Shown here: positions 11,367 to 50,728 of the stretch, in pieces | How the letters are laid out: each line of letters opens with the position of its first letter | Position numbering within the stretch: position 1 is the stretch's first letter | From: a virus | Taxonomy: Duplodnaviria; Caudoviricetes | DNA length: 64,000 nucleotides | IMG/VR virus record: IMGVR_UViG_3300021430_000310 | Span: 1,202 to 65,201 of that record | Reading direction: 5' to 3' (one strand) | Translations under genes and position numbers: made by a program | The notes under the pieces: model-generated | Seen by the model: the letters and a program-made list of their open reading frames with translations, nothing else | Database searches by the model: none | What the model was told of the DNA's origin: nothing

Positions 11367-11511
11367 CCCAAAAAGGTGTGTTCAAGCCATTGATATTGTT
11401 GGGATCATGTTGATAATTTGTAAATTATAGCATGTGTTTGTGCACTGTCAACTGTTATTTTTCAATTGAATATCAAGCACTTAAAAAACTTCATGATCAA
11501 CCTTTTTTTGG

Positions 11512-13355: not shown

Positions 13356-13383
13356 TTGACACCCTGTGTGATCATGCTATAAT
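13356..13383 (+). promoter_or_regulatory. Early promoter
   Basis: TTGACA-16-TATAAT. Confidence 0.8.
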
Positions 13384-13658: not shown

Positions 13659-13686
13659 TTGACACTGATCTCACTCATGCTATAAT
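13659..13686 (+). promoter_or_regulatory. Early promoter
   Basis: TTGACA-16-TATAAT. Confidence 0.8.
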
Positions 13687-14381: not shown

Positions 14382-14409
14382 TTGACACACTCTCACGTCA
14401 TGCTATAAT
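14382..14409 (+). promoter_or_regulatory. Early promoter
   Basis: TTGACA-16-TATAAT. Confidence 0.8.
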
Positions 14410-19108: not shown

Positions 19109-19136
19109 TTGACAATAAGTCACAGTGTGTTATAAT
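19109..19136 (+). promoter_or_regulatory. Early promoter
   Basis: TTGACA-16-TATAAT. Confidence 0.8.
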
Positions 19137-23499: not shown

Positions 23500-23844
23500 A
23501 TGACCCTTTTGAATCCTCTGCAAATTACCTCCATGCAAGCGCATGAATATGTACAACAGATCACCACTCGCAGCACAGCAGACCTTCATGATGATTACCA
23601 GATGATCTGGTTGCTGCAACCTGAGTCAGGTTATGGTGATCTGCATGATGTGATCCACCAATTGCGAGAAGCCATAATTCAAGAGCTACGTGACAGACCT
23701 GGCATTCCAGTCAGACCTAGGCTGGCCACCAGGTTGGGCATGGTGCAACCTGCCTTCCGTAGTAAGGTCATGTATTGGTTGCATGAACCAGATCATGATG
23801 TGGCCAGCAGCACATTTGTGAATACCAACCAAAATAATGGTTGA
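23500..23844 (+). CDS. Hypothetical protein
   Basis: 114-aa ORF following promoter. Confidence 0.55.
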   Translation: MTLLNPLQITSMQAHEYVQQITTRSTADLHDDYQMIWLLQPESGYGDLHDVIHQLREAIIQELRDRPGIPVRPRLATRLGMVQPAFRSKVMYWLHEPDHDVASSTFVNTNQNNG

Positions 23845-23868
23845 CACACCGTCTGTGTGTGCTATAAT
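23841..23868 (+). promoter_or_regulatory. Early promoter
   Basis: TTGACA-16-TATAAT. Confidence 0.8.
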
Positions 23869-42787: not shown

Positions 42788-43549
42788 TTATCCCAGAATC
42801 ACCATGGATTGTGGTGTGCCACCATCCACATAGTTGAGGATCTCCTGGTCCAGCTGAGCCATCTCTTCCTTGGCTTCGGCTTTGAGAGCATCTCCATTAA
42901 GTGTGAAACCTCCCTGAGGCCCAATGCCCTGGCTGTATTTGGAGTAGGCTTGACCTCGCATCTCCTTACAGAGTGCCAGAGTGTAGGATCTCACCCAGGG
43001 CCTGGCATATGGGTCTTTCAGGATCATGTCATCTGGTTTGATCTTGAGAACCCACAGCAACACAGTCTCTTCACCCAGGATGCGACGTACAATTGTGAGC
43101 TTCTTGCTCACAGTGTTGTAGTGGTAGTTGATGTCTCTACCAAACATTCTGCCAGCTTGTTCCTGGTATTGGTAAAACAGCTCAAAGGTCAACAAACCAG
43201 CTGTGTATCCACCGCCTGCACCTGCTTGTAGCAGATACAGATTGGTGTATGCCAGACTGAAGGGATCAATATAAGTGCCGCCTGTGGTGCCACCCAGCCC
43301 ACGTCTGAGGATCTGTCTGACTTCTGCAATCTCTTCAGGCAGGTAATATTCTGTTTGTTCAGGTTGCAGGGCCAGGAAGGCATAAGCTTCTTCCACAGCA
43401 TTAGATGAGCGTTGGCGATAACGCTCCAGTGCCAGCTTGATGGCCATCTGGTAGTCTGCGGCTCCCAGATCAGTTTCAATCATGGAGCCGCCCATTAGGC
43501 GCTCCACATCATCAATTATCTCTTGTTTTGCACTTACGGTTGCACTCAT
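42788..43549 (-). CDS. gp13: Neck protein (gp13-like)
   Basis: Y.LPEEI, GP.GG.TLNG.AL..EA..E..LD.EI; TAAATA at 43579-43584. Confidence 0.8.
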   Translation of the reverse strand: MSATVSAKQEIIDDVERLMGGSMIETDLGAADYQMAIKLALERYRQRSSNAVEEAYAFLALQPEQTEYYLPEEIAEVRQILRRGLGGTTGGTYIDPFSLAYTNLYLLQAGAGGGYTAGLLTFELFYQYQEQAGRMFGRDINYHYNTVSKKLTIVRRILGEETVLLWVLKIKPDDMILKDPYARPWVRSYTLALCKEMRGQAYSKYSQGIGPQGGFTLNGDALKAEAKEEMAQLDQEILNYVDGGTPQSMVILG

Positions 43550-43588
43550 GCGATACACCCAACTTGATCTGTTTGGTGTATTTAAATG

Positions 43589-44053
43589 TCAGAATGCAAA
43601 CAAATCCTCAAATGTGTTGTCTGCTAGGCGATAGCCTGACTCAGTCTTCTCAAAGGAATAGTTGTATGTGAGACCATCTGCACACACAATGTTGCCATCA
43701 TTGCCTGTGGGAGTGAGACCCAGGTTTTGTCTGCATGTTCTCCAGTTGTCTGCCTGCAACTCCACACCGTAAATCTGCTTGTTGAGGATGTGTGCTTCAC
43801 GCTTGATGGGATCAGGTTCCCAGTCAGCCAGACCCTCCATGAGTCTGCGTTTGACTTCCATCAGGAAGGCCCCTGCACCACATGAGTTGTCCAGCCAGGT
43901 CTTGGTAGGATCAGACCAGATGTCCGCAGGCAGCTGATCCAGAATTTCATTCACCAGTTCAGGTGGAGTGAACACTTCACCAAACTGCTTCTTCTTCTCC
44001 TCTTTGGAGAGGGTCACATCTGTTTCGTCATCAACATCTACAATATCAGACAT
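43589..44053 (-). CDS. Truncated N6-adenine MTase-like protein (AdoMet-binding half only)
   Basis: GEVFTP (motif X), DNSCGAGAF (I), YGVEL (II), NIVCADGL (III); ends before any NPPY. Confidence 0.8.
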   Translation of the reverse strand: MSDIVDVDDETDVTLSKEEKKKQFGEVFTPPELVNEILDQLPADIWSDPTKTWLDNSCGAGAFLMEVKRRLMEGLADWEPDPIKREAHILNKQIYGVELQADNWRTCRQNLGLTPTGNDGNIVCADGLTYNYSFEKTESGYRLADNTFEDLFAF

Positions 44054-45194
44054 TATACCAGTCCTTTTTGAAATGTTCAAACATACCATAATCAGTATAA
44101 AATGTGTTCCATTTAGTTGCTGCTATGATACGCTTACCTTTTTCGCTATTCAAGAATTTAACAATCTTATCACCTTCTTGTTTGTTTTTAATACCAATAC
44201 CGAATGTGAGCTGACTCATACCGTATTCACCCTTGTAGTCATTATACGGATATTGATAACGTCCTTGACTTAAGATCACTTTAGGCTTACCAAAATGAAT
44301 ATTCTGATCCGGTGGACTATAATCAAAGTATCTGTACTCAATACCCTCTTTGTTCATGAGATGAATCACCGGATATTTGAATTTTTTAGTCTTATTCACA
44401 GTGTGAACTTTTTGTGTGTGGTAAAATGTGTTGTATAAAACTTCACATCCTTCCCCCAATAATTGAGATATATCATCAATTGCATAATTGGATAACCACT
44501 TCAGGGCAGATAAATCTAGGTGATGAGACACACCTTCTTGATCTTTTGTTATTGTTTTTTGAGTTGGAACACAATTTTGGATTATATAATAATCAATGGG
44601 AGTTCCTACACCAAACACACTTTGTGCCCATGAATCATCTTTCATAACAAGATAAGTCATTTGGTAATCTTTAGTTAAAGTATTCCATAGATTATATCTG
44701 TCAAAAGGTTTACGCCATCCTGGTGGATGCACCATACCCATATATCCATGTGGCTTAAGTAGCTCTAGTGATTTTTTAACAAACAAGGGCCACAGAGAAC
44801 TCTCACCTCTACCGCCCAGTCTAGCCTCAGCTTTTCCTGACTGATAAGGTGGATTACCCACAATCACATCAAACTTCATGTTGCCCCAATCATGTGTGAG
44901 GAAGTCCATCACATATAGGTGATTACTTAACACCTTGTGCCAATTCTTAACATACTTTACGCGAATCAGCCGCTCCTCGCAACCCCACACACGTGAAGCG
45001 ATGTTTTCTTTTGAATGACCAGCTGCCAACAGCCGCCGCTCAATGGCCCTGATGAACTGACCACCTGCCATGGCAGGATCCAGGAATGTGATGCGAGGAT
45101 CAGTCCACACATGATCAGGCAGTTGGTTGAGAATCTCCTCAACCAGATCCTGAATGGGCAGTTTTAGACGCATGAGTCCTTGTGTCATGATCAT
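44046..45194 (-). CDS. Eco57I/TaqI-like amino-methyltransferase with TRD
   Basis: FLDPAMAGGQF, FDVIVGNPPY, LW..FV..SL.LLK..GY..P.GW; ATGA overlap with upstream gene. Confidence 0.85.
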   Translation of the reverse strand: MIMTQGLMRLKLPIQDLVEEILNQLPDHVWTDPRITFLDPAMAGGQFIRAIERRLLAAGHSKENIASRVWGCEERLIRVKYVKNWHKVLSNHLYVMDFLTHDWGNMKFDVIVGNPPYQSGKAEARLGGRGESSLWPLFVKKSLELLKPHGYMGMVHPPGWRKPFDRYNLWNTLTKDYQMTYLVMKDDSWAQSVFGVGTPIDYYIIQNCVPTQKTITKDQEGVSHHLDLSALKWLSNYAIDDISQLLGEGCEVLYNTFYHTQKVHTVNKTKKFKYPVIHLMNKEGIEYRYFDYSPPDQNIHFGKPKVILSQGRYQYPYNDYKGEYGMSQLTFGIGIKNKQEGDKIVKFLNSEKGKRIIAATKWNTFYTDYGMFEHFKKDWYNV

Positions 45195-47497
45195 AAACTC
45201 TCCATCTTGAGGTTGAGCAGATCTGCATTGATCACACCATCCACATACAGCTTGCGCACCATGCACCACTCCAGACCAAATTCTTCCTGCACAGCCTGTT
45301 GAATGTCCGGATCTGCATCACACGCCTTAATAGCATCTGCAACCAGATCACATCCTGCGAAGCCCAACAGCACATCTGTGTTCTCACTCACTGCCACAAT
45401 GCGTTCACGAGCCAGCTGTTGCAGCTTGATCATCATGTCCTTCTTTGCAGCCACAGGTGTCTTCTTGACAACATTCTGCTTGGTCTTGCCCTTGGGCACA
45501 TTGCCCACAGTGTTGATTCGACTGTATGCAATGTGACCCTGTGCCAGTGCACGGATCTCATCCTTGTTCAGCTTGGCCAAGTCAGCCACATTACCAATCA
45601 CCTTGCTCACACTCTTGCGGGCGATGGCTTCACGCAGGAACTCGTCCTTGTTGATCTGCACACCTGAATGTGCACCACCCTTCCAGATGTCCAGGGTGCT
45701 GAGCACTTGAGCCATGAGCTCGCTGGCAGTCTTTTGTGGATAACGCACACGCAAGTTCTTGGTGGTCTCCAGCACCAGTGTGTCAAACTTGTCATCACGG
45801 TTGGGGTCAAAGCTGAGGCTGATGATCTTGCCCACCTTGTGGGGGTCAGAGCCAGGAGTGAGCACTCGGCTCATCTTCTGGATGGTGGCACCTGCCTGTC
45901 CAGCATCATAGGCCAGATACAGCTCTGTGATTTCTGGGATGCTGAATGAACGCTGTGCCATCTGGCTGGCTAGGATGAGCACACTCTGGTTCTGTTTGCG
46001 AGCCTGCTCCACCTGCTCACGCACAGTGGCTTCAGCGTTGAAGTTCTTGACTCGCTTGCTGCCCACCCTAATGTCACCACCACCCAGCACCACCACGCGC
46101 CATGCAGGCAGGACCTGTGCTGCAATTTCACCAGCAGCCTTGAGTGCACCTGAGTTCACACCAGTCTGGTGAGGCAGGAACATCATGGCCACCTTGCTCT
46201 TGTCGCGACCAAACCAGTTCAGGGTCTGCAAGTCCACATTGGCTGACTCCACCTGGTGCTTGCCCAGCAGCACAGTCTCCAGGATTCTCACAAAGAAGCC
46301 CTTGCTCTTCACAGGATGAGCTGCAAACTTGGACCAGCTGGGCAGCAGCTTCATGTCTGCATCCATCTCACCTTGAGCCGCACTTTGTGCCACAGGCACA
46401 CTCAGATCCAGCTGATACAGGCTCATGTGGGGCATCACACAGTCACGCTGAATGTCCACACTAAAGTGTTCCAGCATGTACACAGGTTGCATGCGTGGTG
46501 CACCTGCTGCCAGTGCATGTTCACTCAACCGCTTCTGCACCAGCAGCTCAGGGTATGTGACACTCACCATGTGGTCCACCTGCCAAAGCTTGATGGCTCG
46601 ATCTGAATTGGTGCCAGTCATAATGAGCACACGATGCGCTGGCTTCACACAGCTCTTGAGAGCCTGGGCTTGATTGGGGGTGTGACTGCCAAAGTCTGCT
46701 TCATCCAGGATGAGCAAAGTCTCTTTGGTCTGACTCATGAGCCAGGCAATACGAGCATCTCGCTTGCCACCTGGCGCCATGCTCACATATGCAATCACTC
46801 GCTTGTCAGCCTCAAATGCCTGCTGCACCTGTTGCTGCCAATTGGGCATCTGAGTGTCCACATGCTCATAATGGGCCCACTGTTCAAAGCTGGTGAGGTC
46901 CTTGGCAAAGCTGGCAAACACAGTCTTCACATAACTGGTGACAATCACCAGCTCTGCTTCCAGTTCACGAGCCACCACACCTGACCAGATGGTCTTACCA
47001 AACCTGGCACACAATTCTGCCAGGATCACCTGCTTGTTGCAGTCAAATGCATCAATCACCTGAACAGCCATTTCAGCTTGCAGAGTGCTCAATGCTGCCT
47101 GCGGCAGCGGCTGATTCTGTTGTGCAATCAGGCGATTCACCTTGAGGATGAGCTCTTGACTGCTCAGGGTGTGGATCTCACCTGTGGTGTTCTTGCGATA
47201 ACCCACAAAGGCACGCACATGGTCATCCATGCGTGCAGCCTGATAGCCACGACCCACCTTCTGGGCCCAATCTGACACATCCCAGTAATGATCAATTGTG
47301 ACTACGCCACTCTTGAGAAGGTCCTTTCGCACCCCCAAACTTTCTTTCACACGAGCCAACACACTGGCTTCTGCACTGGTTCCCCTGTGCACCCACCGCT
47401 CACCAAACTTGCACTCATCAGGCTTGTCTGATTCGCTCCACACATACAGCATCATGCGATCATGGGTGGTGATGTCAGGCTGAGCATATTGTGTCAT
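45191..47497 (-). CDS. SF2 helicase/translocase with N-terminal GIY-YIG/T5orf172-like domain (restriction-subunit-like)
   Basis: LYVW..KFG..R..DD..GE N-terminus; ARFGKT, LDEADFGSH, MTGT, QKMSRVLT. Confidence 0.75.
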   Translation of the reverse strand: MTQYAQPDITTHDRMMLYVWSESDKPDECKFGERWVHRGTSAEASVLARVKESLGVRKDLLKSGVVTIDHYWDVSDWAQKVGRGYQAARMDDHVRAFVGYRKNTTGEIHTLSSQELILKVNRLIAQQNQPLPQAALSTLQAEMAVQVIDAFDCNKQVILAELCARFGKTIWSGVVARELEAELVIVTSYVKTVFASFAKDLTSFEQWAHYEHVDTQMPNWQQQVQQAFEADKRVIAYVSMAPGGKRDARIAWLMSQTKETLLILDEADFGSHTPNQAQALKSCVKPAHRVLIMTGTNSDRAIKLWQVDHMVSVTYPELLVQKRLSEHALAAGAPRMQPVYMLEHFSVDIQRDCVMPHMSLYQLDLSVPVAQSAAQGEMDADMKLLPSWSKFAAHPVKSKGFFVRILETVLLGKHQVESANVDLQTLNWFGRDKSKVAMMFLPHQTGVNSGALKAAGEIAAQVLPAWRVVVLGGGDIRVGSKRVKNFNAEATVREQVEQARKQNQSVLILASQMAQRSFSIPEITELYLAYDAGQAGATIQKMSRVLTPGSDPHKVGKIISLSFDPNRDDKFDTLVLETTKNLRVRYPQKTASELMAQVLSTLDIWKGGAHSGVQINKDEFLREAIARKSVSKVIGNVADLAKLNKDEIRALAQGHIAYSRINTVGNVPKGKTKQNVVKKTPVAAKKDMMIKLQQLARERIVAVSENTDVLLGFAGCDLVADAIKACDADPDIQQAVQEEFGLEWCMVRKLYVDGVINADLLNLKMESL

Positions 47498-47521
47498 GTG
47501 GTTATCCTCTATCGCAGCGTC

Positions 47522-47549
47522 ATTATAGCATGGTTGACTTCATTGTCAA
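47522..47549 (-). promoter_or_regulatory. Early promoter driving the R-M-like cassette
   Basis: TTGACA-16-TATAAT; AGAGGA SD downstream. Confidence 0.8.
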
Positions 47550-50461: not shown

Positions 50462-50489
50462 ATTATAGCATGCAGATGACATGTGTCAA
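50462..50489 (-). promoter_or_regulatory. Early promoter
   Basis: TTGACA-16-TATAAT. Confidence 0.8.
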
Positions 50490-50700: not shown

Positions 50701-50728
50701 ATTATAGCATGCATGTGATCCCTGTCAA
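50701..50728 (-). promoter_or_regulatory. Early promoter
   Basis: TTGACA-16-TATAAT. Confidence 0.8.

Follow-up and report, generated by a model that had tools for sequence, protein, structure and literature searches.

A phage cassette of an SF2 motor ATPase, an adenine methyltransferase and a separate half-methyltransferase

Type ISP restriction-modification (R-M) enzymes such as LlaGI and LlaBIII combine in a single polypeptide an Mrr-type PD-(D/E)xK nuclease domain, a superfamily 2 (SF2) motor with RecA1 and RecA2 domains, a gamma-type NPPY adenine methyltransferase (MTase) and a target recognition domain (TRD). The adenine MTases M.TaqI and CamA act without a partner, and T4 EndoII is a GIY-YIG enzyme. 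For cytosine-5 (C5) MTases, complementation between fragments is established (PMC3404938, PMC5944983), and jumbo-phage modification enzymes coupled to nucleases (Mom-nuclease fusions) have been proposed to attack host or superinfecting DNA (PMC7824862). The locus considered here lies in a 64,000-nucleotide window of the IMG/VR virus record IMGVR_UViG_3300021430_000310, a 65-kb viral contig with an estimated CheckV completeness of 17%, and consists of three consecutive genes for a 768-aa ATPase, a 382-aa MTase (the long MTase) and a 154-aa half-MTase (Ns). Literature searches within an open-access library turned up neither this cassette nor a comparable N6-adenine MTase that is split in nature. 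The reading favoured here, which we consider fairly probable, is that Ns is a trans-acting S-adenosylmethionine (AdoMet)-binding subunit of a split MTase, and that this enzyme works together with a Type ISP-like motor acting on unmethylated host or competitor DNA.

The half-methyltransferase and its long neighbour

Ns carries motifs X (GEVFTP), I (DNSCGAGAF), II (YGVEL) and III (CADGL) and ends 27 residues past motif III without the catalytic motif IV (NPPY), so that the original prediction, made from the letters of the window, described it correctly as canonical up to a stop before motif IV. Aligned to the N-terminus of CamA, it stops just where strand 4 (FD..GNPPY) would begin. The Pfam family N6_Mtase matches it at 42.5 bits (cut-off 20.4) over profile positions 19-119 of 311 only, and phrog_4376 matches it over its whole length. 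The paralogy of the two MTase N-termini, claimed in the same prediction, is also seen in their alignment (46% identity over 41 aa, E = 3e-11).

The residues E26, F28, T29, P30, G59, G61 and N103 of Ns are invariant. In the close relatives L006-L019 (loci are numbered with L throughout), Ns is 69-77% identical in amino acids to that of the window, and the adaptor protein encoded beside it 74-79%. Its dN is about 0.2 with saturated dS, its dN/dS is 0.05-0.2, and the two unsaturated pairs have omega values of 0.19 and 0.22. A tree of 96 N-halves places 48 of 48 Ns sequences in one clade and every long-MTase N-half outside it, with a support of 0.90. A profile search of 1.8 billion representatives gave 271 clusters at E<=1e-30, almost all of 100-260 aa, and at least 7,658 short 90% clusters at E<=1e-10; the names, where given, are 'type I methylase subunit', 'N-6 DNA methylase' or hypothetical. 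By these sequence comparisons Ns represents a distinct and ancient family on which purifying selection acts and in which the AdoMet-binding half alone is retained. With its monophyly, this selection and its presence beside an MTase in 47 of 65 loci, it is clearly not the sporadic remnant that the original prediction would have counted towards its refutation. The domain also occurs in other surroundings: in P0178 (942 aa), P0196 (551 aa) and P0144 (261 aa), which are low-complexity or coiled-coil proteins, it is C-terminal and no MTase C-half is present, which points to other partners or uses of the half-domain.

The long MTase matches Pfam Eco57I at 51.8 bits (cut-off 25.3), and its nearest solved relatives by profile are CamA and M.TaqI. 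It holds DPAMAGGQF (motif I) and GNPPY (motif IV) in one chain and has no FTP motif X. The predicted absence of GEVFTP and the intact NPPY can thus both be read in the sequence, whereas the supposedly weakened motif I was a misjudgement: the family consensus is DPAxGGGQF, with which DPAMAGGQF agrees, so that this motif is not clearly weakened. By motif order and profile matches the protein is a gamma-order, Eco57I/TaqI/CamA-like N6-adenine MTase, and it is plausibly active by itself.

Its two parts appear to have different histories. The C-part is 35-36% identical, over the full length, to proteins that consist of a C-part only (L069:8925-9749 and L001:4130-4963), and most of it (from about 44745 on) has a GC content of 0.34 compared with 0.49 around it. 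The low GC and the homology to C-only proteins indicate an imported module on a native N-half, probably acquired by recombination. Long MTases with differing C-parts are found at the same spot, from none to four per locus, and the catalytic-loop/TRD part of the long MTase is an exchangeable module. The Met of MKFDVIVGNPPY (M106), which lies at the point where C-only proteins start, is present in all 39 of 39 long MTases with an NPPY-type motif IV; its conservation suggests internal initiation inside the long gene. Three loci (L050, L054 and L056) have a decayed motif IV (NPAH, NPNF and APPF), and there both Ns and the internal Met are gone. A frameshift fusion of the long MTase with Ns was considered and rejected, as reading in the -1 frame immediately runs into TAA, the stop is not preceded by a known +1 signal, and a spacer separates both genes in relatives such as L015.

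Relatives of the cassette contain true C-halves, a term applied here only to proteins starting at MKFD/GNPPY. Such C-only proteins, starting at M(K/Q)FD..GNPPY, occur in L017/L018, P-SSM2 (036/037), S-CAM7 (00075/76), L069, L001 and L064. In L017/L018, P-SSM2 and S-CAM7 the gene for the C-half lies before Ns and runs into its start, whereas it follows Ns in L069 and L064 and lies about 1 kb upstream in L001. In the fused proteins P0168, P0173 and P0237 of the representative library the C-half comes first and Ns last, which is the motif order of the beta class. C-only genes beside Ns and fused permuted forms together argue that in these relatives Ns and the C-half make one enzyme. The original idea of a domain-sharing MTase is thus supported in the relatives. 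In the window the long MTase has motifs I-IV of its own, so that sharing is there no more than putative; the 64-kb window contains no C-half other than that of the long MTase, a partner gene with its own N-half.

Other candidates did not qualify as C-halves. In L093, L094, L096, L016 and the L001 fusion a short Rossmann-like segment (e.g. EPGNG) precedes motif IV, and gene 87 of Bellamy (L100:2391-2954) and gp052 of ACG-2014f (L098:3434-4036) belong to phrog_7683. This family of about 190-aa proteins (GD.FEWF), in which Pfam finds nothing, lies between an Eco57I-type MTase and Ns in T4-like cyanophages and may represent a nuclease-like partner.

The motor ATPase and the conservation of the trio

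At 768 aa, the ATPase is a DEAD-type SF2 motor, and the domain at its N-terminus is probably T5orf172-like. Its motifs CARFGKT, DEADFG, MTGTN and AQRSFS are invariant in alignments of 22 and 44 sequences, and the AlphaFold2 (AF2) model (mean predicted local distance difference test score, pLDDT, 82.6) has a generic SF2 fold. Foldseek matches of this model in the PDB include HsdR of EcoR124I, ZorD, LlaBIII (Type ISP) and SauUSI, a fold match that does not separate Type ISP from other SF2 proteins. Pfam and NCBIfam gave nothing useful for the window ATPase, the family of which comprises at least 301 clusters. The C-terminal helical region is possibly a coupler.

For the N-domain, the first 130 residues (pLDDT 89), several lines of evidence point to a T5orf172-like fold of the GIY-YIG clan, which we consider likely from the model and feature searches. 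T5orf172 proteins are the best BFVD matches in Foldseek (E 4.6e-4, template modelling score about 0.5), ESM features assign T5orf172 at 0.85, and for L093, a remote family member, Pfam T5orf172 (PF10544) reaches 21.5 bits (cut-off 20). A VIA comparison with the PDB placed the GIY-YIG nucleases HIGLE and Slx1 on top at Z 4.3-4.9, which is under the level clear of chance. Foldseek against the PDB found nothing for this domain, and hhalign of window-type N-domains with the distant N-termini was not significant (probability 0.2). The conserved residues of the domain are Y18, K30, G32, R49, D91, D92, R95, E107 and H109.

Two ATPase peptide patterns searched in the genomes of 185,579 prokaryote species, one genome per species, hit one fragment of a metagenome-assembled genome only, a pattern-based result that distant cellular relatives could escape; from this near absence the ATPase looks like a viral family. 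It is one open reading frame (ORF) in the window and in the 16 closest metagenome homologues. In the IMG/VR relatives L007, L011, L012 and L015 (about 60% identity) it is divided near residue 335 into two ORFs that overlap and lie in different frames. Many loci encode the motor in two pieces, with the break at the RecA1/RecA2 junction. In L068:4935-8933 the halves stand in reversed order with one MTase gene between them, and in L072:118-8041 three MTase genes lie between the halves, so that in these phages the halves act as separate proteins.

A locus search with the ATPase as the only query protein found nothing, whereas an alignment-based scan of viral contigs yielded 77 loci, which were annotated by iterated profile search; the 65 in which 2 kb or more of sequence follows the ATPase downstream were taken as informative. 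ATPase, MTase and Ns occur together in 47 of these 65. A further six have an MTase and no separate Ns, two have Ns and no MTase, and ten have neither. The order ATPase, MTase, Ns is retained at ATPase identities as low as 23% and recurs in unrelated phage backbones, namely an isolate of Synechococcus phage S-CAM7 (MT586120), the 484-kb phage LR756508 and the Atu_ph07-like clade of the window. The three-part module is found almost only in viral sequence. Motor and MTase are fused in L064 (1176 aa) and L091 (1144 aa), and in L093, L094 and L001 (1255 aa) the fusion partner of the motor is an MTase whose N-segment is reduced; the PADLOC model PDLC03626 is matched collinearly by the window ATPase and the MTase part of L064. 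The survey of co-occurrence that the original prediction had proposed thus supports a real association of the three genes, and deep synteny together with the fusions links the MTase and Ns to an ATP-driven protein as it had supposed.

Beyond the trio, T4-like cyanophages have Ns near a ResIII helicase and an Eco57I-type MTase. A sister ATPase clade (L073-L081, e.g. L073:4527-8424) lacks MTase and Ns and instead encodes, after the ATPase, a 294-aa protein and a Mom-family protein (Pfam E 2e-36), an adenine-N6 momylase, which ties the motor to adenine modification as such. The ATPase N-terminus differs in this clade, a ResIII helicase often lies upstream, and the 294-aa protein belongs to no known family. 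At L016:2364-5958 an IS200/IS605-like pair (ORFs of 143 aa, TnpA-like, and 397 aa, TnpB-like) occupies the expected position of the ATPase, followed by a different helicase C-terminal fragment, another MTase type and then Ns. Seven proteins encoded next to cassettes were scanned against PHROGs and fell into families of unknown function or had no match.

Gene layout and promoter

The genes of the window cassette (Table 1) overlap at their borders, the ATPase stop and the long-MTase start as ATGA and the long-MTase stop and the Ns start as ATGTCTGA, and a Shine-Dalgarno (SD)-like GGAG/AGGA precedes the start codons of both the long MTase and Ns. With the full match of the promoter upstream, the arrangement of one early promoter and three translationally coupled genes was predicted correctly. 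Perfect copies of this promoter occur nine times in the window compared with 0.02 expected by chance, so that the cassette promoter belongs to a real promoter class. The sites (TTGACA-N16-TATAAT) lie at 11424-11451, 13356-13383, 13659-13686, 14382-14409, 19109-19136, 23841-23868, 47522-47549, 50462-50489 and 50701-50728, and nearly all share the extended -10 ATGCTATAAT. They mark what, judging from their sequence, would be the host-sigma-70 early promoter class of this phage. Early expression from a host-type promoter fits either an attack on host DNA or early self-protection.

Table 1 Features of the cassette in the window (coordinates are window positions)
Feature	Position	Strand	Evidence or remark
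Sigma-70 consensus promoter with extended -10 (TTGACA-16-TGcTATAAT)	47549..47522	minus	12/12 match
ATPase, 768 aa	47497..45191	minus	ORF list
ATPase N-domain, residues 1-130, probably T5orf172/GIY-YIG-like	47108..47497	minus	fold and feature evidence; Pfam match on distant member L093
SF2 motor core, RecA1 + RecA2	45803..47107	minus	motifs CARFGKT, DEADFG, MTGTN, AQRSFS
ATPase C-terminal helical region (about residues 566-768) and stop codon	45191..45802	minus	model secondary structure; conserved SLSFDPNRDDKFD block
Long MTase, 382 aa	ATG 45194 to 44046	minus	ORF list; lister extends the ORF to GTG 45269
Long MTase N-half: degenerate motif X, motifs I (DPAMAGGQF), II, III	44880..45194	minus	GC 0.49, like surroundings
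Long MTase C-part from the Met of MKFDVIVGNPPY: motifs IV-VIII and TRD	44046..44879	minus	homology to C-only proteins
Ns (short half-MTase), 154 aa	ATG 44053 to 43589	minus	ORF list; Pfam N6_Mtase partial, phrog_4376 full-length
Head-tail adaptor gene, directly 3' of Ns (context only)	42788..43558	minus	phrog_211, E 7.7e-30

Downstream of Ns the same strand encodes the head-tail adaptor, then a deoxynucleoside monophosphate kinase and then the sheath, a 1202-aa protein nearest to those of the jumbo phages Atu_ph07, Phosso and PA5oct (46-52% identity). A megablast of the cassette region against phage records gave no match. The cassette had been described as inserted next to a neck gene; it does adjoin the adaptor gene, but its location upstream of that gene is identical in all close relatives, so that it is not a recent insertion. 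The 30-nucleotide spacer between Ns and the adaptor gene (window 43559-43600) contains CATTTAAATA, similar to the T4-type late promoter TATAAATA, and a late transcription unit may therefore begin right after the early cassette.

Proposed mechanism, rival explanations and known systems

In the proposed mechanism, Ns would be the trans-acting AdoMet-binding subunit of a split MTase resembling the beta order, and in the window phage its partner would be either a C-half translated from the internal M106 or, with Ns in an accessory role, the complete long enzyme. After early expression from the host-type promoter, the MTase and Ns would methylate phage DNA, with the MTase/TRD finding the sites. The MTase/TRD would also target the motor and its nuclease-like domain, which could then act, in the manner of Type ISP, on unmethylated DNA of the host or of competitors. 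On this analysis we infer that the cassette would restrict unmethylated DNA. A bolder version holds that occupancy of Ns decides between methylation and DNA destruction by a T5orf172-armed motor, that Ns completes interchangeable catalytic/TRD modules including C-halves from internal initiation, and that the whole is a new, phage-encoded class of ATP-dependent R-M that degrades the DNA of hosts or rivals and has a sister system built on Mom; this version seems doubtful to us.

Several observations weigh against the proposed mechanism. The long MTase has its own motifs I-IV, conserved across its family, so that Ns may be unneeded, and L067 encodes an intact MTase without Ns. In L012 the ATPase and Ns are both present, but no MTase gene stands between the two. 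An SD-like sequence precedes the internal Met in 44% of cases compared with a background of 22%, a difference confounded by amino-acid conservation. The ATPase is intact where motif IV of the MTase is degenerate, which means that its role does not strictly need methyl transfer, and the link between motor and MTase may be looser than in classical R-M systems. For the N-domain, Pfam has no match in the window protein or in 32 N-domains of relatives, the descriptions of the BFVD matches annotate T5orf172 as DNA-binding, and the nuclease activity is putative. Finally, PADLOC and NCBIfam searches with the fused motor-MTase proteins gave matches to the MTase part only and no full-length Type ISP or Type IIG match.

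The main alternative, which we regard as somewhat unlikely, is motor-assisted modification without restriction: the SF2 protein would translocate to deliver or speed adenine modification that protects phage DNA, and the T5orf172 domain would only bind DNA, as the BFVD names imply. The association of the ATPase with two unrelated adenine-N6 modifying enzymes, MTase and Mom, fits this explanation, as do the early promoter and the up to four tandem MTases with different C-parts, which would suit breadth of anti-restriction. Against it stand the active-site-like polar residues Y18, K30, R49, E107 and H109 that the N-domain keeps, and the survival of an intact ATPase where the catalytic motif of the MTase is lost. 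To our knowledge, moreover, no characterised MTase needs an SF2 motor for modification alone. Alternatively, the genes could be neighbours only, with orphan anti-restriction MTases collecting in a plastic hot-spot by an unrelated core helicase, and Ns redundant in the window phage and of importance only to C-only partners. MTase numbers that vary from 0 to 4 while ATPase and Ns stay, the case of L012, and the presence of Ns without this ATPase family in T4-like cyanophages agree with such a situation. Against it, the gene order holds across deep ATPase divergence and unrelated phage backbones, five independent ATPase-MTase fusion proteins exist, purifying selection acts on Ns at loci whose MTase is complete, and even the cyanophage Ns again stands beside a ResIII helicase and an Eco57I-type MTase, all of which makes mere proximity improbable.

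Two further explanations concern Ns itself. It might be a regulator, sensing AdoMet as a switch between methylation and cleavage, or an AdoMet sponge against AdoMet-dependent host defences, rather than a catalytic subunit; its AdoMet-contact motifs are all invariant with nothing catalytic present, stand-alone Ns proteins are very numerous, and P0144, P0178, P0196 and P0207 bear unrelated N- or C-terminal extensions. That Ns ends exactly at the start of strand 4 of the MTase fold in the CamA alignment, and that C-halves are fused to Ns or overlap its gene, indicates instead a structural half of one enzyme, and we consider a role as regulator or sponge very improbable. The view that Ns arose as a copy of the long MTase gene and is now decaying could draw on the paralogous N-terminus and the missing motif IV, but is practically excluded by the purifying selection on an ancient monophyletic family and by intact Ns ORFs in dozens of divergent loci.

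If the favoured reading, with Ns as a subunit of a split MTase and an ISP-like motor, is true, large phages widely carry an ATP-driven, modification-keyed discrimination of DNA that is partly distinct from Types I, III and ISP, and thousands of proteins now named 'hypothetical' or 'type I methylase subunit fragment' belong to split adenine MTases as genuine subunits. The family contains full genes in tandem, a full gene with an N-half, a C-half with an N-half, and fused permuted enzymes. Circular permutation of MTases by duplication is expected to pass through just such stages, and this long-standing model would become directly testable. Exchangeable TRD modules with one constant AdoMet subunit could also provide a compact toolkit for programmable methylation.

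Among the known systems, Type I R-M (HsdR/M/S) differs in that the window contains no HsdS-like gene, the hsdM model reaches 12.4 bits compared with a cut-off of 242, and the TRD lies within the MTase chain. M.TaqI and CamA (PDB 2ibs, 7lni) share with the long MTase the Pfam Eco57I profile match and the motif order I-II-III-IV-TRD, but they are single chains, whereas the cassette encodes a second, separate X/I-III half beside a long enzyme with a degenerate motif X. Mom-nuclease fusions of jumbo phages and the breakdown of host DNA by T4 EndoII offer a parallel in logic, since modified phage DNA is protected and a linked nuclease attacks unmodified DNA (PMC7824862); they have neither an SF2 motor nor a split MTase, and the function of the cassette can only be inferred.

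Type ISP (PDB 4xqk), the known kind closest in architecture, resembles the cassette in the order of nuclease-like domain, RecA1/RecA2 motor, gamma NPPY adenine MTase and TRD, in the SF2 fold with invariant GKT and DEAD of the window ATPase, in the window's gamma N6-adenine MTase with NPPY followed by a TRD, and in the single-chain motor-MTase fusions of relatives (L064, L091). It differs in being one polypeptide, compared with three ORFs in the window and four where the motor is split, and probably in its Mrr-type N-domain: those fold and feature searches that gave matches point to a T5orf172/GIY-YIG-like domain in the cassette, with no match to PD-(D/E)xK, which could nevertheless have escaped them. 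In addition, the cassette has an extra half-MTase subunit and its family looks viral only. The absence of a clean fit to Types I, III and ISP, noted in the original prediction, is therefore apparent in an ISP-like architecture combined with a probably different N-domain and an additional subunit. In the arrangement of the methylase parts the cassette family resembles natural and engineered split or permuted MTases (M.AquI alpha/beta, M.SssI fragments), as a C-half followed by Ns, and fusions of the P0168 type, have the beta order of motifs IV-VIII, TRD, X and I-III. Those cases are C5 enzymes or laboratory constructs, whereas the cassette MTase is a gamma-like N6-adenine enzyme tied to a motor, and its family comprises full and reduced-N forms alongside C-only and fused-permuted ones.

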